DNA of 64,000 nucleotides, taken from Patescibacteria group bacterium (GTDB taxonomy: Bacteria > Patescibacteriota > Minisyncoccia > Phycocordibacterales > UBA9973). A model generated the notes under the pieces. The model was not told the origin of the DNA and made no database searches. It saw only the letters and a program-made list of their open reading frames with translations. The position numbers and the translations under genes were made by a program. Location: the NCBI GenBank assembly GCA_040390725.1, contig JAZJXT010000002.1, positions 28,450 to 92,449 of the forward strand. The letters run 5' to 3'. This document shows, one piece after another, positions 11,095-63,243 of this stretch (position 1 is its first letter; the number at the start of each line of letters is the position of its first letter).

Positions 11095-11186
11095 AAATAG
11101 CATGGTATACTTATTATTATAAAAATAAAATTATTATCAAAAAATTATTAGCCCCGACGCAAGTCGATTAAAATATTAAAAAAATT

Positions 11187-17100: not shown

Positions 17101-17372
17101 CTGCGGCTAATACTGAAGTTACAGTAAATGGAAATTTGACAATTGCTAATGGCGCTAATGGGGTCCTTACTACTTCGGGAGATATTAACGCTGGTCAGAA
17201 TTTAAATGTTGCAGGAAGTTTAATTTTACTAAAAAAGTGTTACACTAATGATAAAAAAACTACTTTTACTAATTTCTATGGTACTAGTACCCCGAATCTA
17301 TATGGTAGAGCACTTTTTTTAAATGGAGATGGCAGTATTTACCCACAGCATGTAGATGGTTGTGATAACTAA
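11187..17372 (+). CDS. giant secreted tail-fibre-like repeat protein (2061 aa)
   Basis: Signal peptide (LKSIFVLSMVVLSAHAFA). At least 15 'GNVGIGT.TP.AKLDVNG' units. About six copies of the C...G.QRYN...C.G..W..VG module. Large internal duplications (WMWPRY...VMFM twice; GDG.SHGD..W.P..NT..LGTGD..YGP.NL twice; G.VLTSD..G.A.WQ three times). Confidence 0.7.
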   Translation: MSHKIKTALKSIFVLSMVVLSAHAFAVWTPPPAGIPPANNTTAPVNVGSVTQYKTGGLVVGGFRSTGPAFFDDTVQFKQVTTLPDCTATDSSGNFIYKGAQIYYNGSMEFCNGVTWSVVGTKDWLTTAMGNIYYTNAGNVGIGTQTPATKLDVVGTITSTGLNVVGNTATTGLTTGATGLTVSGPLSIPDGASAGKVLTSDAAGTATWQGLIASWSLSGSSLFPTDFANDNVGIGTDSPAERLQVSGGNILTDNKWAFEAKNASGVKEAWMWPRYTDNVMYTNYGANGWNIRDNGGAPVMFMDKNDNVGLGNILPTNKLSVTGNADFSGNVGIGTKTPSAQLSVLGNIAIVRDPGFTNYSPGSSLSLESWSDGTSTSHDDDVGAQVSAADWLAGTDGAPGTDKIVKYACPSGSGGSTYHNDYYRIDLGSGAYDYRKISDVFCVAGTDKFSLRTDRGNLQFLDTNSNPKFIMTQSGNVGIGVTAPAVKLDVNGAVKFGDDTTIVCDTTHPQNAGIQRYDKVDNIMKACNGTTWIAVGANAAPSSSLWSAGTGDDVFKTLNTGNTGIGTQTPAAKLHLSGGNFLMDNSATLQAYNHAVPAMINDWMWPRYHDPVSGTDIMYTNFDVNGWSIRNNTAHPVMFMKDNGNVGINTINPVNKLSVNGDVNIGDSIIPGKLGINTTTPTSSLDVNGDITASRGVSLVNSSALSFYSGTKGTSVYELPYLPATGNDTCGTLNSDTDGDGSVVPNNDRVMCDGLISGPRCYDRVHQSTGDVGAYVTCVADAGTYTIANNTNNLQFSNGTGTNAGVRVTLDKDGKMGVGTTIPQAKLDVNGGIKFGLDGLATDTICTVAGVQRYNGAMQYCDGTNWVPVGSPMFWNVIGTGSDLATINTGNVGIGTGTNPPLAKLDVNGAVKFGDQTVVKDITTPNSNVPGFPNVTCNVAGTQRYNSVSAKMESCDGHYWSSVGDKSLWNADTTGVMVSLATPGQKVGIGTATPHSALEVVGNLQITSPISGPSSNSIILGSGKYDNYGGWPLIPMLTTSGDPLPADPGSSADTCDSNENAVYSCPDSVTKNCTDVTSGTFKSSTSSAPRDAWYKRDVSCVSPDEPLYQIQNNSGDLKFINNNGPQVTVNQNGNVGIGTTTAPGAKLDVNGGIKFGLDGLATDTTCTVAGVQRYNPANSNGMQFCDGSHWKDVGSPATWNEVAGVLSPFTLTDKISIGNVAPFEIDPGNVSSNSSNAGFLRFGDNSGWKFHFGRAKESTSSGFNTDTTGSIMTMQDNGNVGIGTTSPKAKFEVAGNSGDDLINIRNLSTSQPNATSWALRPVTNSKTAYATDLQFFEHGLDGARVTFQGNGGNVGIGTTNPTARLDVAGAVKFGDEHVVTTCDSTTNGTQRYNSSGVMQWCNGVNWQSYGSGVGWIANGNDIYNGNNAGNVGIGTGATPVKNKLFVNGDVGTSASIISGGMMYLQGNDYEHLGNLKYVSQGIFLGGDGLSHGDISWLPNSNTLNLGTGDDPTKAANYPDQYGPVNLSLGGQIRIGGSTAVFDYNGHSVTTVPHPPTKGQVLTALDSTGLASWQAPQAGPWSVVGDDISNSNTGMVKVNGSIATILGLNNNANISQYDLGANKIGAATSIYSYGRICAGNNWGTCDSATQSGVVIESSGQGKFGAVDISGNGPSYFAAGNLGVGTNSPNAKLDVSGDVQVSDGVSVVDSSAVSFYSGDKHINSHTDWTNKSSNSATRTPDTCPGADTKLKFECIGSNTVNSCTDTADYQEYTSGQLTFDGWATRTVSCVATTGVYSVKNNNSTLQFLNDKGTAKLTLDQNGNLGVGGNVSLGAGGSLLQTSPLYLLGDANGYTALNLDPSQYASQGIRFGGDGKSHGDMAWIPGLNTFYLGTGDNPQDMLTGVPNRYGPANLTLAGALSIGGQITIAGGSPGAGKVLTSDSTGKATWQQLPPSSVSPWLVGTNPNTHNTTISTAANTEVTVNGNLTIANGANGVLTTSGDINAGQNLNVAGSLILLKKCYTNDKKTTFTNFYGTSTPNLYGRALFLNGDGSIYPQHVDGCDN

Positions 17373-17420
17373 TTAGCAAGTAGCTCGTAAGGATTTTTCT
17401 TACGCTTGTGTTGTTCTTAC

Positions 17421-17449
17421 AAAAAAATCCCCATGACGGGGATTTTTTT
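17421..17449 (+). terminator. rho-independent terminator after the giant gene
   Basis: aaaaaaatcccc atgac ggggattttttt: perfect stem flanked by an A-run and a T-run (bidirectional). Confidence 0.6.
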
Positions 17450-17463
17450 GGTATAATAAGTGT
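17449..17463 (+). promoter_or_regulatory. extended -10 (TGgTATAAT) abutting the pilB start codon; a leaderless or near-leaderless pilB mRNA is possible
   Basis: tataat at 17452-17457 with TG at 17449-17450; ATG at 17464. Confidence 0.3.
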
Positions 17464-19215
17464 ATGCAAGTAAATGAAGATCAGTTAAAAAAATTTATTT
17501 TGGAAGCAGGGCTTGTGACGCGGACGGATTTGGAAGAAGTCGCAGAGAAAGAGGTAAAGACAAATCAAAAATTTGGCAATATTTTATTGTCAGAAGGAAA
17601 AATTTCTGAAACAGATTTAAAAAGAATGGAAGCTTTGGTTTTAGGAATTCCATTTGTGAATTTGGCAAATGAAAAAATAGATTTTTCTGTTATATCTTTG
17701 GTTCCCGAACCTATCGCTCGCAATCACAATATTATTGCTTATAAAAAAAGTGACAAGGGTCTCGAGGTTGCGATGTTTGATGTGGATGATTTACCTGTGA
17801 TTGATTTCGTAAAGAAACATTCCGGTTTGAAAATATTGCCTAGGCTTACTGATAGTTCTTCTATCAAAACTGCTTTGGCGCAATACGGCAAAACTTTGCA
17901 AATGGAATTTGATGATATTATTCAAAAAGAAAATTCTTCTTTCAAGAAAATAAATGAGATAGAAGATGGTGAGAAATCAGAAAAAGAATTAAAAGAAATG
18001 GCGGAAGATTTGCCTGTGGTAAAAATAGTCGATTCTTTGATTTCTCATGCCATATTGCAGAATGCTTCCGACGTGCATATCGAGCCGGGGGAAAATAATC
18101 TCGTTGTGCGATACCGAATAGACGGTATATTGCATGATGCTATGACTTTGACAAAAAGTGCGGCTAGCGGGGTCACCGCTAGAATAAAAGTTTTAGCCAA
18201 TTTGAAACTAGACGAAAAAAGATTACCTCAAGATGGCAGATTTAAAATAGAAAAAAATGGAGATAAAGTTTCCTTTCGTGTTTCCACCTTGCCGACTTTT
18301 TATGGAGAGAAAACTGTTATTAGAATTTTGAAAGAAGGCGCACATGGATTTTCTTTGGAAGGCCTCGGTTTTCACGGTGAAGGATTGGAGAGGATTCACA
18401 ATTCTTTGAAACAAAGAATAGGTATGGTATTGGCTACGGGCCCTACGGGCTCGGGTAAAACAACAACTCTCTATACGATGCTCGATATTTTAAACAGGCC
18501 GGAAGTGAATATTTCCACCGTTGAAGATCCTATCGAATATCAAATGCCGAGAGTAAATCAAACGCAAGTAAAACCGGAAATAGGAATGACTTTTGCAAAT
18601 GGCTTGCGCAGTTTATTGCGACAAGATCCTGATATAATAATGGTGGGGGAGATACGTGACGGAGAAACTGCCGGACTCGCAGTGAATGCATCTCTTACCG
18701 GGCACTTGGTTCTTTCTACAATCCACACGAATTCTGCTGCGGGTGCGATACCGAGACTTATAGACATGGGAATATTACCATTTTTGATAATTTCTACGGT
18801 AAAAACAATCATAGCTCAGAGGTTGGTGCGTCAGCTTACAGCAAATAAAGAAAAATATTTTTTATCTGCGGATGAAATAAAAAATTTGGCAAAAATTATA
18901 GATTTGGACAGGATGCTCCAAATGTTAAAAAATGAAAAAGTCGTAGGAGTGAAAGACACTTGGGAGAAAATTCCTTTTTATAAAGCAGTACCGAGCAGTG
19001 AAACACCTGACGGGTATTCAAATCGTATAGGTATTCACGAAGTTTTAAAAATGTCTCTGGCTATAAAAGAAATAATTACTCGCGGAGGAAGCCAAGACGA
19101 GATAGAGAAACAAGCAAAAGAAGAAGGCATGATGACAATATTAGAAGATGGAGTTTTCCAGTCAGTCTTGGGCAATACGACACTGGAAGAAGTATTTAGA
19201 GTTGTTTCAGAATAA
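17464..19215 (+). CDS. pilB: type IV pilus assembly ATPase PilB/GspE
   Basis: GspE_N-like N-terminus; Walker A GPTGSGKTTTLY; Asp and His boxes. Confidence 0.9.
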   Translation: MQVNEDQLKKFILEAGLVTRTDLEEVAEKEVKTNQKFGNILLSEGKISETDLKRMEALVLGIPFVNLANEKIDFSVISLVPEPIARNHNIIAYKKSDKGLEVAMFDVDDLPVIDFVKKHSGLKILPRLTDSSSIKTALAQYGKTLQMEFDDIIQKENSSFKKINEIEDGEKSEKELKEMAEDLPVVKIVDSLISHAILQNASDVHIEPGENNLVVRYRIDGILHDAMTLTKSAASGVTARIKVLANLKLDEKRLPQDGRFKIEKNGDKVSFRVSTLPTFYGEKTVIRILKEGAHGFSLEGLGFHGEGLERIHNSLKQRIGMVLATGPTGSGKTTTLYTMLDILNRPEVNISTVEDPIEYQMPRVNQTQVKPEIGMTFANGLRSLLRQDPDIIMVGEIRDGETAGLAVNASLTGHLVLSTIHTNSAAGAIPRLIDMGILPFLIISTVKTIIAQRLVRQLTANKEKYFLSADEIKNLAKIIDLDRMLQMLKNEKVVGVKDTWEKIPFYKAVPSSETPDGYSNRIGIHEVLKMSLAIKEIITRGGSQDEIEKQAKEEGMMTILEDGVFQSVLGNTTLEEVFRVVSE

Positions 19216-19216
19216 A

Positions 19217-20434
19217 ATGAAATTTTTTTACACTGCAAAATTACAAAATGGAGAAATTTTAAAAGGAGAAATGGATTCTTCAGATCGTTTTACTCTTTCA
19301 CGCGAGTTGCGAACACGCGGGTATATTCCTTTGTCTGTTTCAGCAAGGGGAGTAAATTCTTTTGATGTAATGAAAGAATTTACTCGTATTTTTGGCCGTA
19401 TTAAAGTCTCTGAGCAAGTTATTTTAACCAAGAATTTAGGCAACATGCTCAAGGCCGGGTTGGCATTGTCTCGCGCATTGTCTGTTTTGGAAAAACAAAC
19501 AACAAATGAAACATTAAGAAAAATTTTAATAGCACTTACAGGGGAAATAAATTCAGGTGGGACATTTTCTTCCGGGTTATCAAAATTTCCAAAAGTTTTT
19601 TCAAAACTTTTTGTTTCGATGGTTCGCGCCGGCGAGGAGTCGGGCAATCTCGCCGGCGCATTGGCTGAAGTCGGTGCGAATTTGGAGAAATCAAATGCTT
19701 TGACTAAAAAAATAAAGGGTGCGCTCATTTATCCGGGAGTTATTCTCTCTGCTATGGTTGTCGTCGGAGTATTGATGTTTGCGTTCGTGGTGCCGACGCT
19801 TGCAAAAACTTTCATTGAGCTCGGCGTAGCATTGCCGGCATCTACTCAGTTTATAATATTTTTAGGTAATTTCTTTTCAAATTATTTAATTTTATCTTTT
19901 GCTTTGATTATTGGTTTTGTTTTCGGCATCGTGGCTCTTTTCCGAGCGTCTTTCATGGCTAGGCCCATTGATTTTGTAGTTTTGCGTATTCCAATTATTA
20001 GTAATTTGGCCAAGGAATTAAATACTGCCCGCACAGCGAGGACCATCGCATCGCTTATTATTTCCGGAGTTCCCATTACCCGCGCAGTGCAAATAGCCGA
20101 AGATGTGGTTCAAAATGTATATTATAAAAAAGTTTTAAAGGATGCGCGCATAGCCATAGAAAAAGGTGCGCCATTTTCGGAAGTTTTTACAGAACATCCG
20201 GAACTTTATCCGGTGATGATGTCGGAGATGGTAGAAGTCGGAGAAGAGACGGGCAAGCTTTCCGATATGTTGCTCGAGATTGCTGTTTTTTATGAAAATG
20301 AAATAGAAAATAAAACAAAAAATCTATCCACTATCATAGAACCATTTTTGATGATAATAATCGGTACAGGAGTAGGATTTTTTGCAGTGTCTATGATCAC
20401 ACCTTTGTACTCTATACTTAATAATATAAATTAA
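19217..20434 (+). CDS. pilC: type IV pilus inner-membrane platform protein PilC/GspF
   Basis: Starts MKFFYTAKLQNGEIL at the ATG (19217) two nt after the pilB stop; the 19148 start in the ORF track overlaps pilB and is rejected. Two GspF repeats with TM segments. Confidence 0.9.
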   Translation: MKFFYTAKLQNGEILKGEMDSSDRFTLSRELRTRGYIPLSVSARGVNSFDVMKEFTRIFGRIKVSEQVILTKNLGNMLKAGLALSRALSVLEKQTTNETLRKILIALTGEINSGGTFSSGLSKFPKVFSKLFVSMVRAGEESGNLAGALAEVGANLEKSNALTKKIKGALIYPGVILSAMVVVGVLMFAFVVPTLAKTFIELGVALPASTQFIIFLGNFFSNYLILSFALIIGFVFGIVALFRASFMARPIDFVVLRIPIISNLAKELNTARTARTIASLIISGVPITRAVQIAEDVVQNVYYKKVLKDARIAIEKGAPFSEVFTEHPELYPVMMSEMVEVGEETGKLSDMLLEIAVFYENEIENKTKNLSTIIEPFLMIIIGTGVGFFAVSMITPLYSILNNIN

Positions 20435-20435
20435 A

Positions 20436-20903
20436 ATGAGAAATTTTTATCAAAAGGGAATAACATTAGTTGAGACTTTGGTTGCAGTGGCTATCATTGT
20501 TCTCATTCTTGCTATTGTTTTGCCTTCTTTTAATACAATAAAAAAAAATAATATTTTGAAAAGTACCACTGAAGATATTTTTTCAGCTCTGGACAATGCT
20601 CATTCACAGACTCTCTCGTCTGTGAGTTCGTCCACGTATGGGGTGCACTTTCAGTCTGATAAAGTTGTGATTTTTAAAGGCACAGTTTATTCATCGAATG
20701 ATGTAAATAATAAAACTGTAAATATAAACTTTCCGGCAAGTATTTCAAATGTAAATTTTAATAGTGTGAGTGCAATTTCCGGTGATATATACTTTGCTCA
20801 TCTGACTGGAGTGCCGAGCAAGACCGGTACGGTGACCATTGCTGTTTCTTCCAGTACAAAAATAATTACGATTTCAGCAACGGGGAATTTTAGTATAAAT
20901 TAA
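20436..20903 (+). CDS. prepilin-type N-terminal cleavage/methylation domain protein (pilin/pseudopilin)
   Basis: KG|ITLVETLVAVAIIVLILAIV: class III signal with Glu+5. Confidence 0.8.
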   Translation: MRNFYQKGITLVETLVAVAIIVLILAIVLPSFNTIKKNNILKSTTEDIFSALDNAHSQTLSSVSSSTYGVHFQSDKVVIFKGTVYSSNDVNNKTVNINFPASISNVNFNSVSAISGDIYFAHLTGVPSKTGTVTIAVSSSTKIITISATGNFSIN

Positions 20904-20905
20904 TC

Positions 20906-21343
20906 ATGATAAATTTTCTTAAAAATATAAAAGAAAAAAGAAATAAAGCCGGATTTTTAATGGTTGAAGTCATTGTGGCTATTTCTATTATTACCGCTTC
21001 TGTTTTGTCAGCGATGGCAGTCGCCCAAAAGGCAGTATCTATTTCCAGACAATCAGTTCATTCCGCACAAGCCGCATTCTTATTGGAAGAAGGTTCAGAG
21101 AATGCCCGAATATCGAGAGATAATGCATGGGCCAATGTTGCAAGCATAAACACAACAGAGACAATAGGTATTTTTACAAGGACGGTGGTGGCTTCTAGTG
21201 TATTGCGAAATGTGACGACGGGAGCTATTGGCTCCGGAGTCAGTGATGCCAATACAAAATTAATAACTGTCACGGTTTCTTGGAAGGAGGGAGCTACGAC
21301 TTTATCAAAAACTTTACCATTTTATTTGGTAAATATTTTTTAA
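20906..21343 (+). CDS. prepilin-like protein
   Basis: AG|FLMVEVIVAISIITASVL. Confidence 0.7.
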   Translation: MINFLKNIKEKRNKAGFLMVEVIVAISIITASVLSAMAVAQKAVSISRQSVHSAQAAFLLEEGSENARISRDNAWANVASINTTETIGIFTRTVVASSVLRNVTTGAIGSGVSDANTKLITVTVSWKEGATTLSKTLPFYLVNIF

Positions 21344-21350
21344 TAATTAT

Positions 21351-21866
21351 ATGCAAATATTTTTCAAAAATAAAAAATTAATAAATAGCGGCGGGTATGC
21401 TTTGGTGGAAACTATTTTTTACATTGCTATTTTAGGTATTCTTTCTACGGCTGTTATCAGTGCTTTGGTGACTATGGGAAAAACATTCAAAGAAACTGTC
21501 GCACAAACGGCATTATTGCAAAGTTCCTCTATTATGGAAAGAATGTCCAGAGAAGTACGGCAAGACTATAGCGCAACTTTAGTCAGTTCAACTGATTTAA
21601 TCTTAAAAGATTCCGCCGGAGTAAATAAAACGGAATTCAAGCTTTCTGGTACTGATTTGCAATTATTGGAAGGTTCCGGTTTAACTTTTACCGGTAACTT
21701 GAATTCTCCAAATGTTACAGTTACAGCTTTGAGTTTTACACAGATTACAACCACACAAGGAAAAGCATTTAAAGTGGTCATGTCAGTCAGATACACTTTA
21801 GGGTCAGTTGTTCGCACTGCGGATTTTTATGATACAGTTACATTGAGGGGAAGTTATGTGCATTAA
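21351..21866 (+). CDS. prepilin-like protein
   Basis: GG|YALVETIFYIAILGILSTAV. Confidence 0.7.
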   Translation: MQIFFKNKKLINSGGYALVETIFYIAILGILSTAVISALVTMGKTFKETVAQTALLQSSSIMERMSREVRQDYSATLVSSTDLILKDSAGVNKTEFKLSGTDLQLLEGSGLTFTGNLNSPNVTVTALSFTQITTTQGKAFKVVMSVRYTLGSVVRTADFYDTVTLRGSYVH

Positions 21867-21868
21867 TT

Positions 21869-23188
21869 ATGAAAATAAAAAATAAAAAAATAAAATATAA
21901 TTCCGGCGCGGCGATGCTCATATCTGTGATATTTTTTCTTTTTATTTCTTTGGCGATTATTGCCGGACTTGTTTCTCCTTCAGTGCGAGAATTTAAAATT
22001 GCCAGGGATTATTTGCAGTCCAGGCAAAGTTTCTTTTTGTCTGAATCTGCTATTGAAGATTCTTATTATCGTATAAATAATAGCTTGCCACTTGGTTCGA
22101 CAGATACTTTGACTATCGGCAGTACTACGGCGACAGCTACTATTGTGGCTGACGATGTTAATAATAAAACCATTACATCTCTTGGTGATTTATCTTCAAG
22201 ACAAAGAACAAATCAATTAAAAATAAATTCCAATTCTTCGGTAGTTTTTGCTTATGGAACACAGGCAGGTGAGGGGGGAATTATTTTTTTACAGAATACA
22301 GGATTAGTCGGTAATTTGTATTCCAATGGACCTATTGCGGGATATAGTAATGCTTATGTGACAGGTAATGCGTATGCTGCTGGCAGTTCAGGAACAATCA
22401 CTACGAGTGGCGGTTCTTTTTGCATAGGGGGTTTTACTTCAAATAATCATTGTACATTAAATTCTAGTGATGCTCATGCTCATACAATAACAGGGACGAC
22501 AGTAGCAGGTACTCTATACTGCCAAACAGGTTCTTCTAATAGTACTTCTTGCAATACAACCCAAGCAGACCCGGCAGTTATTTCTTTGCCTGTAACTGAT
22601 GCAAATATTACTACATGGAAACACGATGCTGCTACAGGAACTATTATTAATGGTGATTATACTGTCTCTGCGGATACTACTCTCGGCACAGCAAATGCCA
22701 CGGAAATTACTGGAAATCTTACAGTGAATAGCCGTACTACTCTTACAATTGCAAATACTATTTATGTTGTTGGAAATATTGTAATTAACGGTGATTTACA
22801 AATGGCATCTATTTACGGACCACACAGCGCAGTGATTATTGCAGATGGCTTGATTTCAACTGGTGGAGGTGTTCATGTTTATGATTCCGGAACTGCTGGG
22901 AGCTATGTAATGTTACTTTCAACTAGCACTTGCGATGAAAATACTTCTACTGGCCCTTGTAGCGGGCATAATGCTATGGATATAGGAAATAGCTCTGATA
23001 TTATGATTATTAATGCGCAGAATGGAACTGTTTATATGGCTAATGGCGGAAACGCAAAAGAAGTTGTTGGACAAAAAATACGCTTAAAGAATAATACTGT
23101 TGTTACTTATGGTACTGGTTCCACTACTGCTAATTTTTTGAGTGGTATTGGTAATGTTTGGCGGGTTTCGAGCTGGCTCGAGATATAA
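21869..23188 (+). CDS. large pilin-like / pilus-associated protein (439 aa)
   Basis: Pilin-like hydrophobic N-terminus SGAAMLISVIFFLFISLAIIAGLV lacking Glu+5. Thr/Gly/Asn-rich C-terminal beta-rich domain. Confidence 0.5.
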   Translation: MKIKNKKIKYNSGAAMLISVIFFLFISLAIIAGLVSPSVREFKIARDYLQSRQSFFLSESAIEDSYYRINNSLPLGSTDTLTIGSTTATATIVADDVNNKTITSLGDLSSRQRTNQLKINSNSSVVFAYGTQAGEGGIIFLQNTGLVGNLYSNGPIAGYSNAYVTGNAYAAGSSGTITTSGGSFCIGGFTSNNHCTLNSSDAHAHTITGTTVAGTLYCQTGSSNSTSCNTTQADPAVISLPVTDANITTWKHDAATGTIINGDYTVSADTTLGTANATEITGNLTVNSRTTLTIANTIYVVGNIVINGDLQMASIYGPHSAVIIADGLISTGGGVHVYDSGTAGSYVMLLSTSTCDENTSTGPCSGHNAMDIGNSSDIMIINAQNGTVYMANGGNAKEVVGQKIRLKNNTVVTYGTGSTTANFLSGIGNVWRVSSWLEI

Positions 23189-24069: not shown

Positions 24070-25218
24070 ATGAATAGTATAAAAAGTTTAAAAAACATAA
24101 AAGGTAAAAAAGTTCTTGTGAGAGTTGATTTCAATGTGCCTGTTTTGAACGGTAAGGTGGAAGACGATTTCCGAATACAAAAAGCATTGCCAACAATTAA
24201 ATTTTTACAGAAAAAAGGCGCGAAAGTTATTTTAATAACGCACTTGGGTAAAGGCGGGGAAACTCTTTTGCCGGTGGAAAAAGTTTTGAATAAATATGTA
24301 AAAGCTGTTTTTGTGGCTGATATTGTGGGAGAAAAAGCAGAAAATGCTGTGGATGCTATGAAAAATGGTGATGTAATTTTGTTAGAAAATTTACGTAATA
24401 ATGACGGCGAGAAAAATTGTGATAAAACTTTTGCGAAAAGTTTGGCAAAATTCGGGGATATTTATGTGAATGAAGCCTTTCCTGTGTCACACAGAGCTGA
24501 TGCTTCTATTGTTTTGTTGCCGAAGCTTTTGCCGGCGTATGCGGGTTTGCAGTTAGAAAATGAAGTGAAAAATCTTTCGAAAGTTTCCAAGAGCGTAAAG
24601 CATCCATTTCTTTTTATTTTAGGCGGTGCGAAATTTTCTACCAAGATGCCTTTGATTAAAAAATATTTAAAAACTGCGGACAATATTTTTGTTGGCGGAG
24701 CATTAGCGAATGATTTTTTGAAAGCGAAGGGTTATGAAGTTGGCAAATCTTTGACGGACAATGGTGATTTTGGAATTAAGAAATTTATAAATAATAAAAA
24801 ACTTATTTTACCGGTGGATGCTGTAGTCACCTCACCCCAGCCCTCTCCTTATAAAGGAGAGGGGGAATTCGTAAATAAAAAAGCAAGTGAAGTAAAAAAA
24901 GATGAAATTATTTTAGATGTCGGCAGTGAATCAGTAAAAAATTTAGCACCGATTATTAAAAAAGCAAAAATGATTCTCTGGAATGGGCCTTTGGGAAAAT
25001 ATGAAGAAAAAGAATGCAGAGCGACAAAAGAAGTTTTGAAAATGGTGATGAATTCAAAAGCTCAAGTGACTATAGGTGGCGGAGACATAGTCGCTGTTTT
25101 ATCTCAAATGAAAATTAATACTGACAAAAGAAAAAATTTATTTGTATCTACTGGCGGAGGAGCAACTCTCGACTTTCTTGCTAATGGCACCTTGCCAGGA
25201 ATTAAAGCGTTAAAATAA
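24070..25218 (+). CDS. pgk: phosphoglycerate kinase
   Basis: VLVRVDFNVP and ILWNGPLG motifs. Start moved to the ATG at 24070 (MNSIKSLKNIKGKKVLVRVDFNVP). Contains the in-frame palindromic insert at 24828-24865. Confidence 0.9.
   Translation: MNSIKSLKNIKGKKVLVRVDFNVPVLNGKVEDDFRIQKALPTIKFLQKKGAKVILITHLGKGGETLLPVEKVLNKYVKAVFVADIVGEKAENAVDAMKNGDVILLENLRNNDGEKNCDKTFAKSLAKFGDIYVNEAFPVSHRADASIVLLPKLLPAYAGLQLENEVKNLSKVSKSVKHPFLFILGGAKFSTKMPLIKKYLKTADNIFVGGALANDFLKAKGYEVGKSLTDNGDFGIKKFINNKKLILPVDAVVTSPQPSPYKGEGEFVNKKASEVKKDEIILDVGSESVKNLAPIIKKAKMILWNGPLGKYEEKECRATKEVLKMVMNSKAQVTIGGGDIVAVLSQMKINTDKRKNLFVSTGGGATLDFLANGTLPGIKALK
24828..24865 (+). repeat. RPE-like palindromic element, copy 1 (in-frame within pgk; encodes TSPQPSPYKGEGE)
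   Basis: cacctcaccccagccctctccttataaaggagaggggg; core is a perfect 10-bp inverted repeat ccctctcctt/aaggagaggg. Identical reverse-complement copy at 62919-62955 and a 2-mismatch copy at 57294-57329. Confidence 0.6.
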
Positions 25219-35262: not shown

Positions 35263-37050
35263 ATGAGTATAAAAAATAAGCTAGAAAATTTAATAAAAGA
35301 TGCGTTAAAAAAGTTAGAAATGAATTCGCCAGACGGCGAAGTTAATTTTGTCGTAGAACATCCGGAAGATTTTAAGAATGGGGATTACTCTACGAATGTG
35401 GCATTGGTTTATGCTAAGAAATTAAAAATGAAACCTGTTGATTTGGCGGAGAAAATTTTAGCAGAACTTTATGAAGATACAGATGAAAAGGGCATTAAGG
35501 GTGTGGAAAATATAGAGATAGCCGGCGCGGGGTTTATAAATTTTTATTTAACACGTGAATTTTTCAGTGATTCTATAAAAGATATTTTACACAAGAATGA
35601 AGACTGGGGCAGGAATAATTTATTGGAAGGAAAAAAAGTAATGGTGGAATACACTCAGCCGAATCCTTTCAAGCCTTTTCACATAGGGCATTTGATGAGC
35701 AATGCCATCGGAGAGTCAGTTTCGAGAATTGTAGAATTCTCCGGCGCGAAAACTATCCGTGCGAATTATCAGGGTGATGTTGGTCCGCATATTGCGAAAG
35801 CGATTTATGGGATTATGAAAGACCCTGAGTACTTAGAGGCAAGACCTCTCAGTAGAGGTCTTGCCTCTAAGTCGGCATCTTGGATTGGGGAGTGTTATTC
35901 AAAAGGCAGTGATTTGTATGACAATGATCCGGAAGCAAAAAAAGAAATTGATGTAATAAATAAAAAAGTTTACGACAAGAGCGATGAAGAAATAAATAAA
36001 GTTTATGATTGGGGGAGGAAAGTCACCCTCGAAGCATTTGAAGAACTTTATAAAATTCTCGGCACGAAATTCGACTATTATTTTTTTGAAAGCGAGATGG
36101 CACCGATAGGTGAAAAAATTGTCCGCGCAAATGTGCCGAATGTTTTTGAAGAATCCGACCCCACACCAGAGCAAGCTCAGTACGGGGCAAGAGGCGCTAT
36201 TATTTTTCGTGCTGAGAAGTATAACCCTAAATTGCATACGCGAGTGTTCTTAACTTCACAAGGCATACCGCTTTATGAGACGAAGGAAATAGGTTTGACG
36301 ATGACGAAATTTGAAAAAGAAAATCCTGATATTTCTATTGTTGATACAGCTATTGAGCAAGGCGAATATATGAAAGTTGTTCAGCAGGCTATCGCACTCA
36401 TGCATCCGGAATTGGAAAAGAAAATGTTGCATATCACGCACGGTATGATGCGCCTCGCATCGGGCAAAATGTCTTCCCGAAAAGGTAACGTAGTCACAGG
36501 TGAGTCATTGTTGCGAGATTCTATGGATGTCGTATTGGAAAAAATCCAAGATAGAGATTTTACCGAAGAAGAAAAGAAAAAAGTCTCAGAAGTCGTCGGC
36601 GTGTCGGCGCTCAAATATTCTATTTTGCGTTCTTCTGTCGGCTCGGATATTGTTTATGATTTTGATAAATCAATTTCGTTTGAAGGGGATTCCGGCCCAT
36701 ATTTACAATATTCCGCTATCCGCGCGAAATCAATCCTCGCAAAAGCCAAAAGTGAAAATTTGGAGGCTAAACCTCCAAAAGAAGTTCCAGAACAAATTTC
36801 AGATTTAGAAAAAATTCTTTATCGTTTCCCCGAAGTTGTCGCGCGCTCATATGAAGACCTCGAACCGCACAATATCGCCACATATTTGACCGAGCTTTCA
36901 TCATCCTTCAATTCTTTTTACGCCAATACACAAATCTTAAACAATGAAGATAAATTTTCTTCATATTATTTAGCACTCACCAAAGCATTTTTCATCACAA
37001 TGCAAAACGGCCTTTGGCTTTTGGGAATTAAATTGCCGGAGAGGATGTAA
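35263..37050 (+). CDS. argS: arginyl-tRNA synthetase
   Basis: Start at the ATG at 35263 (MSIKNKLENL), 1 nt after the dut stop. PNPFKPFHIGHLMSNAIG (HIGH), DALR-type C-terminus. Confidence 0.9.
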   Translation: MSIKNKLENLIKDALKKLEMNSPDGEVNFVVEHPEDFKNGDYSTNVALVYAKKLKMKPVDLAEKILAELYEDTDEKGIKGVENIEIAGAGFINFYLTREFFSDSIKDILHKNEDWGRNNLLEGKKVMVEYTQPNPFKPFHIGHLMSNAIGESVSRIVEFSGAKTIRANYQGDVGPHIAKAIYGIMKDPEYLEARPLSRGLASKSASWIGECYSKGSDLYDNDPEAKKEIDVINKKVYDKSDEEINKVYDWGRKVTLEAFEELYKILGTKFDYYFFESEMAPIGEKIVRANVPNVFEESDPTPEQAQYGARGAIIFRAEKYNPKLHTRVFLTSQGIPLYETKEIGLTMTKFEKENPDISIVDTAIEQGEYMKVVQQAIALMHPELEKKMLHITHGMMRLASGKMSSRKGNVVTGESLLRDSMDVVLEKIQDRDFTEEEKKKVSEVVGVSALKYSILRSSVGSDIVYDFDKSISFEGDSGPYLQYSAIRAKSILAKAKSENLEAKPPKEVPEQISDLEKILYRFPEVVARSYEDLEPHNIATYLTELSSSFNSFYANTQILNNEDKFSSYYLALTKAFFITMQNGLWLLGIKLPERM

Positions 37051-44903: not shown

Positions 44904-44977
44904 ATTTAAAAAACTCGCATCTTTTTAATGTAAATAATCATTTGTAATTCAGCCCTATTTTGTGCTATATTTCAGTA

Positions 44978-47900
44978 ATGTCTGAAGAAAAAAATAATAA
45001 AAATACAAAATCAATAAATGCAGAGAGGGAGGAGAAAATTCTGAAATTCTGGGCGGAAAATAAAATTTTTGAAAAATCTATTGAAAAAGAAGCGCCGAAG
45101 GGGAATTATGTTTTTTATGATGGTCCGCCTTTTGCAACGGGGTTGCCACACTACGGGCATATCTTGGGAAGCACTGTGAAAGATGTCATCGGGCGGTATC
45201 AGACGATGCGTGGATTCCGTGTGCCTAGGCGTTGGGGTTGGGATTGTCACGGTTTGCCTATTGAAAATATCGTGGAAAAAGATTTGGGAATTTCCGGACG
45301 GAAAGCCATTGAAGAATTTGGTATTGATAAATTTACCGAGCACGCGCGGAGTAAAGTGCTGACTTATGTGGAAGAATGGCGAAAGACTGTGAACCGCATG
45401 GGGCGATGGGTGGATTTTGATAATTCTTATAAGACAATGGACAATACTTTTATTGAAAGTGTGTGGTGGGCGCTCGGCGAATTGCATAAAAAAGAATTGT
45501 TGTATGAGGGTGTGCGAGTACTCGCGTATTGTCCGAGGTGTGAGACGCCTATCGCAAATTCTGAAATTGCGATGGATAATAGTTATAAAGATATTACTGA
45601 TATTTCTGTGTACGTGAAGTTTAAGATAATCACCGACCAAGAAATTTCTAGGTCCTCGGGTCGCGTCGCTTCTGAGGTTTTTCCTGCGGAAAAACAAACG
45701 AAGCTAGCTCAACCAGACGCTAAAAATTCCTTGGTCGGCTCGTATCTTTTAGCTTGGACGACGACGCCGTGGTCTTTGCCGGGGGATACTGCTCTAGCGA
45801 TAAATAAAAATATAAAATATGTGAAAGTTGAACACAATGGCGAATTTTATATTTTGGCGGAAGATAGAATAAAATTCGTGCCGACATTGAAAGATATAGA
45901 ATTTAAAAAAGGAGAAAATATGTGGGATGTAAATGCGGAGGAACTTATTGGTAAAAGTTACGAACCGCCTTTTGATTATTATAAAAATGCAGACTTGCCG
46001 CACAAAGAAAATATTTGGAAAATTTGGCATGCAGATTTTGTGACTATTGATGCGGGTACGGGTATAGCGCACGAGGCGCCGGCTTTTGGTGAGGAAGATA
46101 TGAACTTGGCAAAGGAAAATAATATTCCTTTTATTCGACATGTCGAGCCGAACGGAGTTTTCTCAAAAGAAGTGACGGATTTCGCTGGAACAAAAGTAAA
46201 ACCAAAAGAAGACCATCAGTCGGGAGATGTTTTGATAATAAAATATTTAGCAGGGAAAGGTTTGCTTTTTGCGAAAGAAAAAATAATCCACTCGTATCCG
46301 CATTGTTATAGATGTGATACGCCTTTGCTTTATTACGCTTTGCCGTCGTGGTTTGTAAATATTCAAAAAGTAAAAAATGATTTGCTTGAAAAAGCGCAAG
46401 AGATGAACTGGATTCCGGCGCATTTAAAAGACGGACGTTTTAAAAACATAATGGAAAACGCGCCGGATTGGACTATTTCTAGGAATAGATATTGGGCAAG
46501 TCCTTTGCCTATTTGGAAATCAGAAAGTGGAAAAATAATGATGGTGAGTTCACTCGAAGATTTGAGAAATAAAACAAAAAAATCAGGAAATAAATTTTTC
46601 GTAATGCGTCACGGGGAAGCAGATCATAACGTGAAACAGCTTTGCAGTAGTGGACCAAATGACCCGCATCATTTGACGGAAAATGGAAAAGCAAAGGCAA
46701 AAGAATCCGCCCAGAAATTAAAAAATGAAAAAATAGACTATATATATGTATCGCCATTTGTGCGCACAAAAGAAACAGCAGAAATTGTCGCAAAAGAAAT
46801 AGGTTTATCCTCGGATAAAATAATTATAGATAATCGTTTACATGAAGTAAATTGGGGGGATTTTGATGGTAAAACTTTTGCAGAAGGCATGGCTTTTGTT
46901 AAAGAAAAAATGATGACCGCAGATGTACCATTGCCAAATGGCGAGTGTTGGCAGGATGTGAAAAATAGAGTGGGGGATTGTATTTACGACGTTGATTCAA
47001 AACATAAAAATTCTAATATTTTATTTGTCGGGCATGGAGGCACATTGGAAATCTTGCCAACTATTGCAAAAGGTTTTAACCAAACAGAAACTATGCAAGA
47101 AGTAATGCGGACAGTAGGAGGGAAAGTTTATGTCCCTGGAGAATTTTATGAATTAAATTTTGTTTCCATACCGCATAATGCAAAATATGAACTCGACCTG
47201 CACCGACCTTATATAGATGCAATAATTTTGGCAGACGAAAAAGGAGAAGAGTATAAAAGAATTCCTGAAGTTATCGATTGTTGGTTTGAGTCCGGCTCGA
47301 TGCCTTTTGCGCAGGACCATTTTCCATTTGAGAATCCAAATTGGCAGAAAGAAAATTTCCCCGCAGGTTTCGTGGCGGAATACATAGCGCAGACGAGGAC
47401 ATGGTTTTACTATACGCATGCAATTTCTACGATGCTCTTTGAGCATGCGCCATTTAAAAATGTCGTGACCACTGGCACAGTGCTCGCGGAAGACGGCAGT
47501 AAAATGTCTAAATCAAAAAATAATTTCCCTGACCCTTGGATATTGTTTGAAAAATACGGCGTGGATGCTTTGCGTTTTTATTTGATGTCTAGTCCTTTGA
47601 TGAAAGGGGAAGATGTGAACTTCTCTGAAAAATCTGTGCAGGAAATCTCCAGTAAAATAATAGGCCGACTCGATAATGTTTTTGCTTTTTATGAATTATA
47701 CAGAGACAGAAATTTAGAAAGTGAAAATGCAAAACCTGAAAGTAAAAATGTTTTGGATATTTGGATTCTATCTCGATTGGAACAATTGATTTCTGAAGCA
47801 ACAAAAAATATGGAAGCTTATGATTTGGCTTTGGCGACGCGACCTTTTGAATTATTTATGGAAGACCTTTCGACTTGGTATTTGCGTCGTTCACGCGAGA

Positions 47901-48568
47901 GATTAAAAGATGGTGACAAAGATGCCAGACAAACTTTATATTTTGTTTTGAAAAATACTGTAAAATTACTCGCTCCTTTTACACCGTTTATTTCGGAAGA
48001 TATTTGGGCAAAATTAAGAAACGAAAACGATGTAGAGAGTGTGCATTTAGCTGAATGGCCAGAAGTATCAGTGGTTAATATTTCTACGGATGAAATGCAA
48101 ATTGCAAAGATGCAGATTGTAAGAAATTTTGTTTCTCTTGGCTTAAAAGAAAGACAAAAAGCGGGAATCCCTGTCAGGCAACCGCTTAAATCAATCAGTG
48201 TTTCAAATATGGTTTTAGAAAGTTATTACAAAGATCTTATTAAAGATGAGTTGAATGTAAAAGAAGTTTTGGAAATATCTTTAAATGAAGGTGAAGTAAA
48301 ACTTGATACAGAAATAACTCCAGAATTAAAAATGGAAGGGGATTATCGCGAGCTAGTGCGAGCTGTGCAAGACATGCGAAAAGCAAAAGGTTTAATGCCG
48401 AGCGATATTATTACGTTGACTATTGATACTGATACAAAAGGTCAAGAAATAATAAATAAATTTAAAGAAGAATTCTTGAAAGTTGTCGGCGCGAAAGAAA
48501 TAATGTTTGGCGAAAATGATGGAATGGAAGTAAAAATTGATTCTCTAATTTTTAAGATTAAAATATAA
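44978..48568 (+). CDS. ileS: isoleucyl-tRNA synthetase carrying an internal histidine-phosphatase-like domain
   Basis: PPFATGLPHYGHILG (HIGH), KMSKSKNN, WTISRNRYWASPLPIW, zinc knuckles CPRCETP/CYRCDTP. ATG at 44978. Residues ~520-740 form an RHGE...HGG phosphatase-like insertion. Confidence 0.9.
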   Translation: MSEEKNNKNTKSINAEREEKILKFWAENKIFEKSIEKEAPKGNYVFYDGPPFATGLPHYGHILGSTVKDVIGRYQTMRGFRVPRRWGWDCHGLPIENIVEKDLGISGRKAIEEFGIDKFTEHARSKVLTYVEEWRKTVNRMGRWVDFDNSYKTMDNTFIESVWWALGELHKKELLYEGVRVLAYCPRCETPIANSEIAMDNSYKDITDISVYVKFKIITDQEISRSSGRVASEVFPAEKQTKLAQPDAKNSLVGSYLLAWTTTPWSLPGDTALAINKNIKYVKVEHNGEFYILAEDRIKFVPTLKDIEFKKGENMWDVNAEELIGKSYEPPFDYYKNADLPHKENIWKIWHADFVTIDAGTGIAHEAPAFGEEDMNLAKENNIPFIRHVEPNGVFSKEVTDFAGTKVKPKEDHQSGDVLIIKYLAGKGLLFAKEKIIHSYPHCYRCDTPLLYYALPSWFVNIQKVKNDLLEKAQEMNWIPAHLKDGRFKNIMENAPDWTISRNRYWASPLPIWKSESGKIMMVSSLEDLRNKTKKSGNKFFVMRHGEADHNVKQLCSSGPNDPHHLTENGKAKAKESAQKLKNEKIDYIYVSPFVRTKETAEIVAKEIGLSSDKIIIDNRLHEVNWGDFDGKTFAEGMAFVKEKMMTADVPLPNGECWQDVKNRVGDCIYDVDSKHKNSNILFVGHGGTLEILPTIAKGFNQTETMQEVMRTVGGKVYVPGEFYELNFVSIPHNAKYELDLHRPYIDAIILADEKGEEYKRIPEVIDCWFESGSMPFAQDHFPFENPNWQKENFPAGFVAEYIAQTRTWFYYTHAISTMLFEHAPFKNVVTTGTVLAEDGSKMSKSKNNFPDPWILFEKYGVDALRFYLMSSPLMKGEDVNFSEKSVQEISSKIIGRLDNVFAFYELYRDRNLESENAKPESKNVLDIWILSRLEQLISEATKNMEAYDLALATRPFELFMEDLSTWYLRRSRERLKDGDKDARQTLYFVLKNTVKLLAPFTPFISEDIWAKLRNENDVESVHLAEWPEVSVVNISTDEMQIAKMQIVRNFVSLGLKERQKAGIPVRQPLKSISVSNMVLESYYKDLIKDELNVKEVLEISLNEGEVKLDTEITPELKMEGDYRELVRAVQDMRKAKGLMPSDIITLTIDTDTKGQEIINKFKEEFLKVVGAKEIMFGENDGMEVKIDSLIFKIKI

Positions 48569-57290: not shown

Positions 57291-57293
57291 GAA

Positions 57294-57329
57294 CCTCACC
57301 CCAACCCTCTCCTTATTAAGGAGAGGGGG
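57294..57329 (+). repeat. RPE-like palindromic element, copy 2 (intergenic, metG-tatD)
   Basis: cctcaccccaaccctctccttattaaggagaggggg; 2 mismatches to copies 1 and 3; perfect 10-bp stem. Confidence 0.55.
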
Positions 57330-57343
57330 AGGAAGAAAAGATT

Positions 57344-58222: not shown

Positions 58223-58266
58223 GGCAATAATTTGCATTTTAAAAGTTTTCTGCTATTATAGGATTC

Positions 58267-58767
58267 ATGCAAGAAATGGAAAATAAAGATGAAAATATGG
58301 ATGGAGATGCTCGAGTTTATGAAGTCGGGTATCTTTTAGCGCCTACTATTCCAAGCGAAGAAGTCGCTAGTGTTTATGGTAATCTAAAAGAACTCATTAA
58401 CTCTTTGGGTGGTCAGGTAATAGCAGACGAGATGCCTAGGCAGATAAATTTGGCTTACCAAATGCTCCATGTTTTTCAGAATAAGAGACAAAAATTCGAC
58501 ACAGCGTATTTTGGCTGGATGAAGTTTTCTGTGGTTCCTGCAAAAGTCGCCGAGCTCAAGAAGAGTTTAGATTTAGACCCAAACTTTATCAGATTTTTAA
58601 CTATGAAGACTGTTAAAGAAAATACTTTAGCTACAAAGAAATTTGTACGTCCTGATATGGCAAAACGAAAACCTTTTACTGCAAAGAAAGAGGGTGAGAC
58701 AGAAGAAGTTGTAGAAATCAATAAAGAAGAGTTGGATAAAGAAATCGAAGCGATGGTGTCAGCTTAA
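58267..58767 (+). CDS. rpsF: 30S ribosomal protein S6 (with N- and C-terminal extensions)
   Basis: RVYEVGYLLAPT...LGGQV...RQINLAYQM core; operon context rpsF-ssb-rpsR. Exact start uncertain. Confidence 0.7.
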   Translation: MQEMENKDENMDGDARVYEVGYLLAPTIPSEEVASVYGNLKELINSLGGQVIADEMPRQINLAYQMLHVFQNKRQKFDTAYFGWMKFSVVPAKVAELKKSLDLDPNFIRFLTMKTVKENTLATKKFVRPDMAKRKPFTAKKEGETEEVVEINKEELDKEIEAMVSA

Positions 58768-58782
58768 AAATTTTAAAATATT

Positions 58783-59244
58783 ATGTATTTAAACAAAGCA
58801 ATTGTAATAGGAAATCTAACCCGCGACCCGGAACTTCGTTCTTTGCCGTCTGGGATCAAGGTCTGTACATTTTCTCTTGCTACAAATCGTGTTTGGAAAG
58901 ATAAAAATGGCGCGAAACAAGAATCTGCGGATTATCACAATGTTGTAGTATTCGGACGCCAAGCAGAAACAGTTGCTCAATACATGAAAAAAGGGAATTC
59001 AATTTTAGTAGAAGGCAGAATGCAGACACGCAGTTGGGATGACAAAACTTCTGGCGAGAAAAAATATCGTACAGAAATAGTCGCCGACAGAACACAATTC
59101 GGACCGAAAGGGGGAGCAGCGCCAAGCGGAGGTACTAGTATGGGTTCTGGTCAGACACACACACCGACAGGAGCGAGCGCAGAGGAAACAGACAGCATCG
59201 AGTATCCAGAAGAAGATATTAACCCAGAAGATATACCATTTTAA
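58783..59244 (+). CDS. ssb: single-stranded DNA-binding protein
   Basis: OB-fold (NKAIVIGNLTRDPELR); Gly/Ser-rich linker; acidic C-terminal tip EDIPF. Confidence 0.9.
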   Translation: MYLNKAIVIGNLTRDPELRSLPSGIKVCTFSLATNRVWKDKNGAKQESADYHNVVVFGRQAETVAQYMKKGNSILVEGRMQTRSWDDKTSGEKKYRTEIVADRTQFGPKGGAAPSGGTSMGSGQTHTPTGASAEETDSIEYPEEDINPEDIPF

Positions 59245-59257
59245 TTAATTAATAAGT

Positions 59258-59298
59258 CCCGATGTCGGACATATGGGAACCATATGTCCGACATCGGG
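59258..59298 (+). promoter_or_regulatory. perfect 19-bp inverted repeat (3-nt loop) between ssb and rpsR
   Basis: cccgatgtcggacatatgg gaa ccatatgtccgacatcggg; 13 nt upstream of the rpsR ATG. Confidence 0.5.
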
Positions 59299-59311
59299 GC
59301 AAAAAATACTT

Positions 59312-59512
59312 ATGAAACAAGATTACTTTTCAGCAAACAATATAAAATTTATAGACTATAAGGATATTGAAATCCTAAAGAAATTTTTGAACCCAAACGG
59401 CAAAATAATGAGCCACAAGCGTACTGGTGTAACAGCTAAAAACCAGCGCGCTCTAGCTACTGCTGTTAAGCGTGCTCGCTTTTTCGGACTCTTACCTTTT
59501 GTCGCTAAATAA
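59312..59512 (+). CDS. rpsR: 30S ribosomal protein S18
   Basis: [28 protein letters not shown]. Start at the ATG at 59312 (the ORF-track start lies inside the hairpin). Confidence 0.85.
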
Positions 59513-62694: not shown

Positions 62695-63243
62695 TTACTT
62701 TTTTTCATAAACCACAAAAGAATACGGCAAGGGGTTTTTGTCGTCGGGTTGGTGATTTTCGCGCCAGGTTTCTTTCCAGATGTTTTTATCTATTGCAGGG
62801 AAAAACACATCGGCAGTTTTGTCTTCGGCACTTATTTCTGTGATGTCTAGGTGCGTCGCCACTGTATTTATGGCTTGTCGGTAAATATCCGCTCCGCCTA
62901 TTATGTAAACTTTTTCTTCCCCCTCTCCTTTATAAGGAGAGGGCTGGGGTGAGGTGCTTACTTTTTTAACTGCCTCCTCTAAAGAATGCACTACGTCTAT
63001 GCCGAGGCGTAGATAGCTTTTATCTCGTGTGATTATTATATTTCTGCGGGATGGCAAAGGTCGTCCAAGTTCGCCAGAAGGGCTTTTGCCCAATGATTCA
63101 AAAGTTTTCCTGCCCATTATTACCGGATGCCCCAAAGTTTTATCTCGAAAATATTTTTGATCTGCCGGCATTTTCCAAACTAAATCATTACCCTTGCCGA
63201 GCTCATTATTTTTTCCTATGGCTGCTATTAGTGAAATTATCAT
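62695..63243 (-). CDS. folA: dihydrofolate reductase
   Basis: MIISLIAAIGKNNELGKGNDLVWKMPADQKYFRDKTLGHPVIMGRKTF. Contains the in-frame palindromic insert (STSPQPSPYKGEGEE). Confidence 0.9.
   Translation of the reverse strand: MIISLIAAIGKNNELGKGNDLVWKMPADQKYFRDKTLGHPVIMGRKTFESLGKSPSGELGRPLPSRRNIIITRDKSYLRLGIDVVHSLEEAVKKVSTSPQPSPYKGEGEEKVYIIGGADIYRQAINTVATHLDITEISAEDKTADVFFPAIDKNIWKETWRENHQPDDKNPLPYSFVVYEKK
62919..62955 (-). repeat. RPE-like palindromic element, copy 3 (in-frame within folA)
   Basis: Reverse complement is cctcaccccagccctctccttataaaggagagggg, identical to the pgk copy; same orientation relative to its host gene. Confidence 0.6.

Follow-up and report, generated by a model that had tools for sequence, protein, structure and literature searches.

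Why does an operon for ribosomal proteins in an ultra-small bacterium carry a perfect, GC-rich hairpin in the spacer between ssb and rpsR, and is this hairpin a conserved r-protein switch or an element that reached the spacer by another route? The question arises from 64 kb of DNA of low G+C content (37.5%), which we refer to throughout as the window and which belongs to a Paceibacteria/Nomurabacteria (CPR) genome; homologues of its SSB, S18 and ArgRS all come from metagenome-assembled genomes of this kind. The features that matter at this locus are as follows:

58231-58259, plus strand: candidate promoter TTTGCA-17-TATTAT, with a TG, whose end is 7 nt upstream of the rpsF ATG (from a promoter scan and from the pattern seen across genes)
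58267-58767, plus strand: rpsF (S6, PF01250), first gene of the operon (Pfam)
58783-59244, plus strand: ssb (PF00436), the upstream cistron (Pfam)
59251-59304, plus strand: cassette with flanks AATAAGT (59251-59257) and GCAAAA (59299-59304), which are those of both copies of the related hairpin in genome L062
59256-59300, plus strand: full predicted RNA stem-loop of 21 pairs, to which the base adds G59256-C59300 and U59257.G59299
59258-59298, plus strand: perfect palindrome with arms 59258-59276, CCCGATGTCGGACATATGG, and 59280-59298, CCATATGTCCGACATCGGG, and loop GAA at 59277-59279 (sequence, inverted-repeat search)
59299-59311, plus strand: A-rich unpaired 13-nt linker GCAAAAAAUACUU, without a Shine-Dalgarno (SD) sequence (sequence, fold, SD count)
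59312-59512, plus strand: rpsR (S18, PF01084), the downstream cistron (Pfam)

The hairpin and its translational context

The two arms are complementary at 19/19 positions and, together with the loop, span 41 nt. The initial annotation of this DNA had reported just such a repeat with its GAA loop at 59258-59298, and the sequence and a repeat search agree on it. Its other descriptive statements are also borne out: the arm is GC-rich relative to its surroundings (58% G+C vs. 37.5% for the window), two CATATG sites lie inside the hairpin (59270-59275 and 59281-59286), and 13 nt lie on each side of it within the 67-nt spacer, that is, between the ssb stop codon TAA (59242-59244) and 59258 and between the hairpin end and the rpsR ATG at 59312. 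In 64 kb at the composition of the window, ~6e-6 perfect inverted repeats of at least 19 bp with a loop of 3-10 nt would be expected by chance. The predicted minimum free energy of the hairpin RNA is -41 kcal/mol compared to -15.5 +/- 2.6 for shuffled sequences (z = -9.8), with 0/200 shuffles matching its stability, and the hairpin tops all 50-nt folds on both strands of the 64-kb window. In the predicted fold, both the 13-nt linker and the rpsR AUG are unpaired.

We found no second copy of the hairpin arm in the window when up to three mismatches were allowed. Rfam, used at gathering and at permissive thresholds, returned only sub-threshold, miRNA-like hairpin matches for the window, and neither a viral contig scan nor a phage BLAST search with the spacer gave a match. 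When the 16-mer GATGTCGGACATATGG was compared with metagenomes, the matches listed (at least 120) were all single-arm chance matches in unrelated, mostly high-GC DNA. An origin by template switching from nearby sequence was rejected, as the matches were just 8-10 nt long and consistent with chance; they recur in relatives because they lie inside the conserved tatD coding region. An in-frame ATG within the hairpin (59273) has already misled one gene call, since public annotation carries a spurious 79-aa S18 (P0242, 59273-59512) beside the correct 66-aa product (P0241).

The initial annotation had also taken the 'cgggg' stretch as an SD-like sequence for rpsR that the hairpin sequesters. This stretch does sit in or beside the right arm of the hairpin, but it is not a ribosome-binding site, because the SD count is at background and TAnnnT boxes of leaderless type are common. 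GGAG, GAGG or AGGA is present at -20 to -4 in 5/59 window genes, compared to 7.5% of random windows, i.e. at background, and the genome is essentially without SD usage. Given this background level of SD use, and because the spacers before rpsR in relatives that lack the hairpin are pure A/T, there is no rpsR SD to sequester. In ~14 genes, a TAnnnT box ends ~7 nt before the ATG (e.g. 6757 and 26941 on the minus strand, and 17464, 20906, 23211, 44316, 49821 and 58267), a pattern which suggests that leaderless mRNAs may be widespread. The promoter-like site upstream of rpsF suggests in the same way that the rpsF mRNA may be leaderless or near-leaderless, which would leave no room for an operator in a 5'UTR. 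A promoter for rpsR within the linker was considered and rejected, the best -10-like hexamer, AATACT, ending 2 nt before the ATG.

Spacers and hairpin families in Nomurabacteria

For comparison, we used 80 orthologous loci from GTDB species representatives and two closer relatives (82 loci), as well as further strain sets. The median length of the ssb-rpsR spacer is 29 nt, and it is no longer than 45 nt in 57/82. The initial annotation had asked for conservation of the hairpin in related genomes, naming its absence there, together with a lack of effect on rpsR translation or termination, as grounds against the proposal. In a tree of S6+SSB+S18, the nearest neighbours of the window are L081 (whose SSB is 95% identical), L019, L082 and L040, and all four have spacers of 10-39 nt without the hairpin. 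Because these nearest neighbours lack it, the proposal fails its own check on conservation. About a quarter of the ssb-rpsR spacers (22/82) fold at -10 kcal/mol or below, while fewer of the rpsF-ssb spacers (10/82) do so. Perfect GC-rich hairpins of other sequence are present in the ssb-rpsR spacers of L062 (21 bp), L024 (20 bp), L039 (~10 bp) and L003, and an Rfam search of 10 related loci yielded nothing relevant.

Some relatives carry larger inserts at these positions. Elements of 100-116 nt have terminal inverted repeats, with termini (AT)CCCGTTAGAAGC...GCTTCTAACGGG(AT), and are flanked by 6-bp direct duplications, ATGAAA at the rpsR start and ATGTAT at the ssb start, which we take to be true insertion footprints. 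These elements look like MITEs, and Rfam gave no match to them. They are inserted exactly at the ssb or rpsR start codon, where the terminal AT and the next G restore the ATG of the gene. Copies are present at 1960-2074 in L004/L005, 1385-1500 in L042, L055 and L056, 1978-2090 in L031, and 1971-2070 in L046, as well as in the ssb-rpsR spacer of L216-L225 and at 9417-9538 in L226. The ssb-rpsR spacer of L016 contains a 424-nt insert (1951-2374) with flanking inverted repeats GGAATAGGTTATAGGGGGTAGGG ... CCCTATAACCTACCC; it encodes a 119-aa 23S rRNA-intervening-sequence (IVS) protein (PF05635, E = 5e-37, with a weaker bAvd-like match). Tandem short motifs found in other spacers (attacgaatt, ctaggc/agcctaa, ataaagtt) may be remnants of such IVS-type stems.

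The window hairpin itself fits a family that we define here as the Nomurabacteria CCC...GGG family, with which it shares the flanks, the CCC...GGG base, the ATA(G/T)GGGAA apex and the position. The general form is (A)AGT-CCC...A/C-ATA-G/T-GGGG-AA(TT)-...GGG-GC-AAAA, and members are placed in short, A/T-rich intercistronic spacers, 5-13 nt past a stop codon and 10-14 nt ahead of the next ATG. L062 carries a perfect 21-bp hairpin twice, in the ssb-rpsR and the rpsR-efp spacers, and both copies are flanked by AATAAGT and GCAAAA as in the window. The left arm of the window hairpin is identical to the L062 arm at 13/19 positions (ungapped), with each difference compensated on the other arm, and its apex is identical to that of L063 at 11/13 positions. 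The hairpin in the recA-efp spacer of L008 matches that of L062 at 19/22 positions despite the different clade. Within one clade, related hairpins occupy three sites: recA-efp in L008, ssb-rpsR in L024, and rpsR-efp in L063 and L203. A hairpin upstream of rpsF in L026 has the stem base of the family, GTCCCGAT...ATCGGGAC, and a 7-nt loop.

When six members were aligned, 12/22 pairs were found to change on both sides, a level reached by 0/500 shuffles, and across ~146 bp of family stems there is no G.U pair or mismatch inside the arms. A covariance model (R1) scores the window at 74 bits, a circular value, given that the model was trained on a set that included the window. Over the window and the 82 loci, the same model identified no further strong members.

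Both L062 (1962-2006 vs. 2230-2274) and L039 (1967-1987 vs. 2208-2228) have two copies that bracket rpsR. In each genome the paired copies are identical save for the loop, which is reverse-complemented (ATT/AAT in L062, CAG/CTG in L039), and thus the paired copies are exact inverted repeats of each other. Between these sister genomes, however, the stems differ. This copy pattern indicates concerted evolution or re-insertion. The efp gene is co-directional with rpsR in both genomes; in most relatives the two genes are convergent. Strains with identical S18 (P0338) have an rpsR-efp spacer of either 51 nt without a hairpin or 68 nt with one, and the 68-nt allele contains a perfect 16-bp hairpin, ACAGGCAAGACCTGTA-ata-TACAGGTCTTGCCTGT, with a GGCAAGACC core (L217, 1575-1609). 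Hairpin turnover reaches the strain level. The window hairpin is lineage-specific and belongs to a family of perfect palindromes that is loosely conserved and low in copy number. Perfect Watson-Crick arms are as compatible with a DNA-level process, or with a recent origin, as they are with selection on RNA; taken together with the loop flips, perfect pairing points to a DNA-level process that creates or homogenises palindromes, or to youth, and not to long-term selection for RNA structure.

Probable origin of the hairpin, its likely consequences and competing explanations

We think it rather probable that the hairpin represents a REP-like palindromic element, specific to its lineage, which the spacer acquired through insertion or recombination, and not a conserved r-protein switch. 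REP elements are palindromes of 20-40 bp located downstream of coding regions, between unidirectional or convergent genes, and carry an unpaired GTAG or CGTC tag at one end (Di Nocera et al. 2013; PMC3733652). Like the REP/BIME elements of Proteobacteria, the hairpin is a short, GC-rich palindrome that is placed after a coding region between co-directional genes and is transcribed. In both cases, the sequence families are specific to a species or clade, some members or sister families lie inside genes, and the expected effect is that of an mRNA 3' stabiliser, with differential expression within operons. However, the hairpin has no GTAG/CGTC tag (AAGT and GCAA border it as read on the plus strand, and TTGC and ACTT as read on the minus), its arms are perfect, and its conserved flanks, AATAAGT/GCAAAA, are asymmetric. 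Furthermore, none of the 59 ORFs of the 64-kb window encodes a RAYT (Y1 transposase), another transposase, a homing endonuclease, a recombinase or a regulator. A counterpoint also comes from the copy number: there is a single copy across the 64 kb of the window and another across 20 kb of an L063-type genome, and at this density, one per 20-64 kb, the family would be far below the hundreds per genome of classical REPs. No target-site duplication was found around the window hairpin, in which it differs from MITEs and from the 100-116-nt elements of its relatives with their ATGTAT/ATGAAA duplications.

A possible second parallel is offered by Rickettsia palindromic elements (RPEs) and by organelle GC clusters, such as the hairpin elements of sponge, Volvox and fungal mtDNA (PMC2800124, PMC2670323). 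They too are GC-rich hairpins, scattered in AT-rich reduced genomes and variable among close relatives, and the in-frame insertions of RPEs are resembled by the sister elements that lie in frame within pgk, folA and argS in the window. In contrast, their sequences are unrelated to the window hairpin, and RPEs are 100-150 bp long.

A REP-like copy would have entered the spacer between ssb and rpsR either by insertion or through recombination that exchanged spacer alleles, for which the highly conserved ssb 3' end and rpsR 5' end could have supplied the homology, and it would not have been retained as a conserved operator. Co-transcribed with rpsF-ssb-rpsR, it would form a 21-bp, -41 kcal/mol stem-loop with no U-tract and with the rpsR start left single-stranded. 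In a REP-like manner, this structure could act as a barrier to 3'-exonucleases and/or as an RNase III-type substrate, thereby parting the fates of the rpsF-ssb and rpsR mRNA, and in a genome lacking SD-led initiation the stem might keep ribosomes at the ssb stop codon from coupling or scanning onward to where rpsR begins. As the leading consequence, a role at the RNA level within the rpsF-ssb-rpsR transcript is the most plausible. The intercistronic stem-loop probably influences how the mRNA is processed or how stable it is, and probably makes rpsR independent of ssb translation.

Intercistronic hairpins processed by RNase III are known from phage T7 early mRNA and from rRNA/IVS stems. The window hairpin resembles them in presenting about two helical turns of unbroken dsRNA between cistrons, its 21 predicted pairs falling within the range of an RNase III substrate (~20 bp or more), and the IVS-protein element occupies the same spacer in L016. 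The T7 sites, unlike the window hairpin, carry internal loops. A gene for RNase III (rnc) was not found within the window.

A rival explanation is that stable hairpins have been selected at rpsR itself, where they would form a processing or insulation cassette, either for excision of this SD-less cistron by RNase III in the way of rRNA and IVS stems or for independence from ssb and efp. Three unrelated hairpin families directly flank rpsR (CCC...GGG, GGCAAGACC in L217, and CAGACG in L003), and the bracketing copies of L062 and L039, identical within each genome and different between them, would suit a cassette, as would the steady distance of 10-14 nt to the next ATG, the IVS-protein element in the L016 spacer, and a genome that is SD-less with leaderless-type promoters. 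In addition, ~150 kb of broader contexts, all of them centred on rpsR, contain six perfect hairpins that reach 13 bp or more and lack a T-tract, of which 3/6 flank rpsR. This enrichment (Fisher p = 0.007; 0.06 if the window, from which the search started, is set aside) hints at selection acting on the site, as opposed to neutral insertion. Nevertheless, with sampling centred on rpsR and the window chosen for its hairpin, the enrichment is marginal once the window is removed. Moreover, 57/82 genomes show no structure between ssb and rpsR, the nearest relatives do without one, the rpsF-ssb spacer also takes insertions (10/82 fold at -10 kcal/mol or below), and the same hairpin families are found elsewhere, even within a coding region. 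Because of the 3/6 enrichment, with p = 0.007 or 0.06, we retain selection at rpsR as an explanation, although an unlikely one. We see an equally small chance that interchangeable perfect hairpin cassettes have been recruited repeatedly to both sides of rpsR as RNase III/IVS-type signals, making an independently stable, translatable mRNA, with the copies homogenised by inverted-repeat gene conversion.

The regulatory readings of the initial annotation fare less well. It had suggested autoregulation by S6:S18 through the hairpin, and a translational operator would either hide the rpsR ribosome-binding site and/or bind S6:S18 for autogenous control. The hairpin lies 13 nt upstream of the rpsR AUG, CCG triplets are present in its stem, and S6:S18 autoregulates rpsF operons in many phyla by means of the S6S18CBM, an irregular hairpin in the rpsF 5'UTR, directly before the start codon, with a bulge that presents an unpaired CCR 2-3 nt upstream of an SD that is itself part of the stem (PMC3854524). 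Although the window hairpin belongs to the same operon and contains the triplets, it is located between ssb and rpsR and not in the rpsF 5'UTR (the rpsF ATG is 7 nt past a -10-like box); its stem is perfect, with no bulge, every CCG triplet is paired and there is no SD; and it is not conserved among relatives. No relevant Rfam match was obtained, rpsF is apparently leaderless, and in a genome without SD usage the fold leaves both the rpsR start codon and the 13-nt linker before it free of pairing. An operator is thus very unlikely, and the lack of conservation in the nearest relatives largely refutes it. It is also quite improbable that the hairpin works as a partial intrinsic terminator, or as an attenuator, and so keeps transcription of rpsR below that of ssb, as a GC-rich, strong stem with a short loop right past a stop codon might suggest. 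Termination is the role usually assigned to perfect inverted repeats that follow stop codons (PMC13155455), and a scan flags the hairpin as terminator-like, but on the minus strand only, where no gene enters the site. On the coding strand, the 3' flank (GCAAAAAAUACUU / GCAAAAAATACTT) has no U-run, the next gene of the operon starts 13 nt later, and the linker offers no promoter from which rpsR could be transcribed. The real terminators of this clade have an A-tract/stem/T-tract arrangement, as at 17420-17450 in the window and at sites after rpsR in many relatives.

Perfect Watson-Crick arms, with no G.T pairs in ~146 bp of family stems, would suit a DNA-level site, be it an operator palindrome bound by a dimeric protein, an option close to one that the initial annotation had raised, or a cruciform or hairpin recognized by a recombinase or transposase, and the loop inversion between the paired copies of L062 and L039 suggests a DNA-level flip-flop or inverted-repeat gene conversion. 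The hairpin sequence differs between genomes, however, and the window encodes no regulator, recombinase or Y1 transposase, making such a site improbable as well. Finally, chimeric reads can yield perfect palindromes and the source is a metagenome-assembled genome (MAG), yet an assembly or amplification artefact in the form of a chimeric inverted duplication is extremely unlikely, given that the genes on either side keep intact reading frames, that like sites carry related hairpins in many MAGs obtained independently by different studies with different assemblers, and that one strain set is identical across three independent assemblies. Overall, the initial annotation is partly supported: its descriptive part is right, and its specific regulatory readings fail where tested.

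For annotation, this means that neither an r-protein operator nor a terminator should be assigned to the ssb-rpsR hairpin. Streamlined CPR genomes are usually portrayed as nearly repeat-free, and in the full-text literature searched, the coverage of which was partial, we came across no REP- or MITE-like elements described for Patescibacteria. Our comparison points to several small GC-rich palindrome families in Nomurabacteria, which vary between strains, lie in the spacers of core operons and are able to enter housekeeping genes in frame. If such hairpins shape the fate of mRNA without SD-led initiation, they would provide a convenient point of access to operon expression in uncultivated bacteria.

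Other palindromes and genes in the window

A second perfect 19-bp palindrome, ACTTAGAGGCAAGACCTCT-cagt-AGAGGTCTTGCCTCTAAGT, is present at 35831-35872 with a predicted stability of -34.9 kcal/mol. It lies in frame inside argS, where it encodes ...YLEARPLSRGLASKS..., and its core is again GGCAAGACC, which recurs in an intergenic hairpin of L082 (12765-12796) as well as in the L217 hairpin at 1575-1609. The same core is also seen as 'LEARP..GLA.K' in the ArgRS of a lineage that is 69% identical (P0141). We considered the argS palindrome as a clean insertion of 14 codons and rejected this; its boundaries are blurred because the region is a hypervariable loop in homologues.

In addition, a palindromic element of ~38 nt, ACCTCACCCCA(G/A)CCCTCTCCTTAT(A/T)AAGGAGAGGGGGA, is present in three copies:

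24829-24866, plus strand: copy in pgk, in frame
57293-57330, plus strand: copy in the metG-tatD spacer
62918-62955, minus strand: copy in folA (the DHFR gene), in frame

The pgk and folA copies encode an identical 13-aa peptide, TSPQPSPYKGEGE, which in DHFR aligns to a gap relative to solved structures. Kindred elements of the form CCCCTCTCC...GGAGAGGGG plus GGGGTGAGG are present in L004/5, L062, L070, L079, L082 and L226.

Two further observations concern the genes of the window. An isoleucyl-tRNA-synthetase-like ORF of 1202 aa (44960-48568) has a histidine-phosphatase domain (PF00300, aa 547-707, E = 1e-34) between segments of its catalytic core. Several large ORFs at 9601-17372 and 20906-23188, including one for a 2061-aa protein (11187-17372), are without a Pfam match and adjoin type IV pilus / T2SS genes, namely PilB-like (17464-19215), PilC-like (19148-20434) and pilin-like (at 20436).
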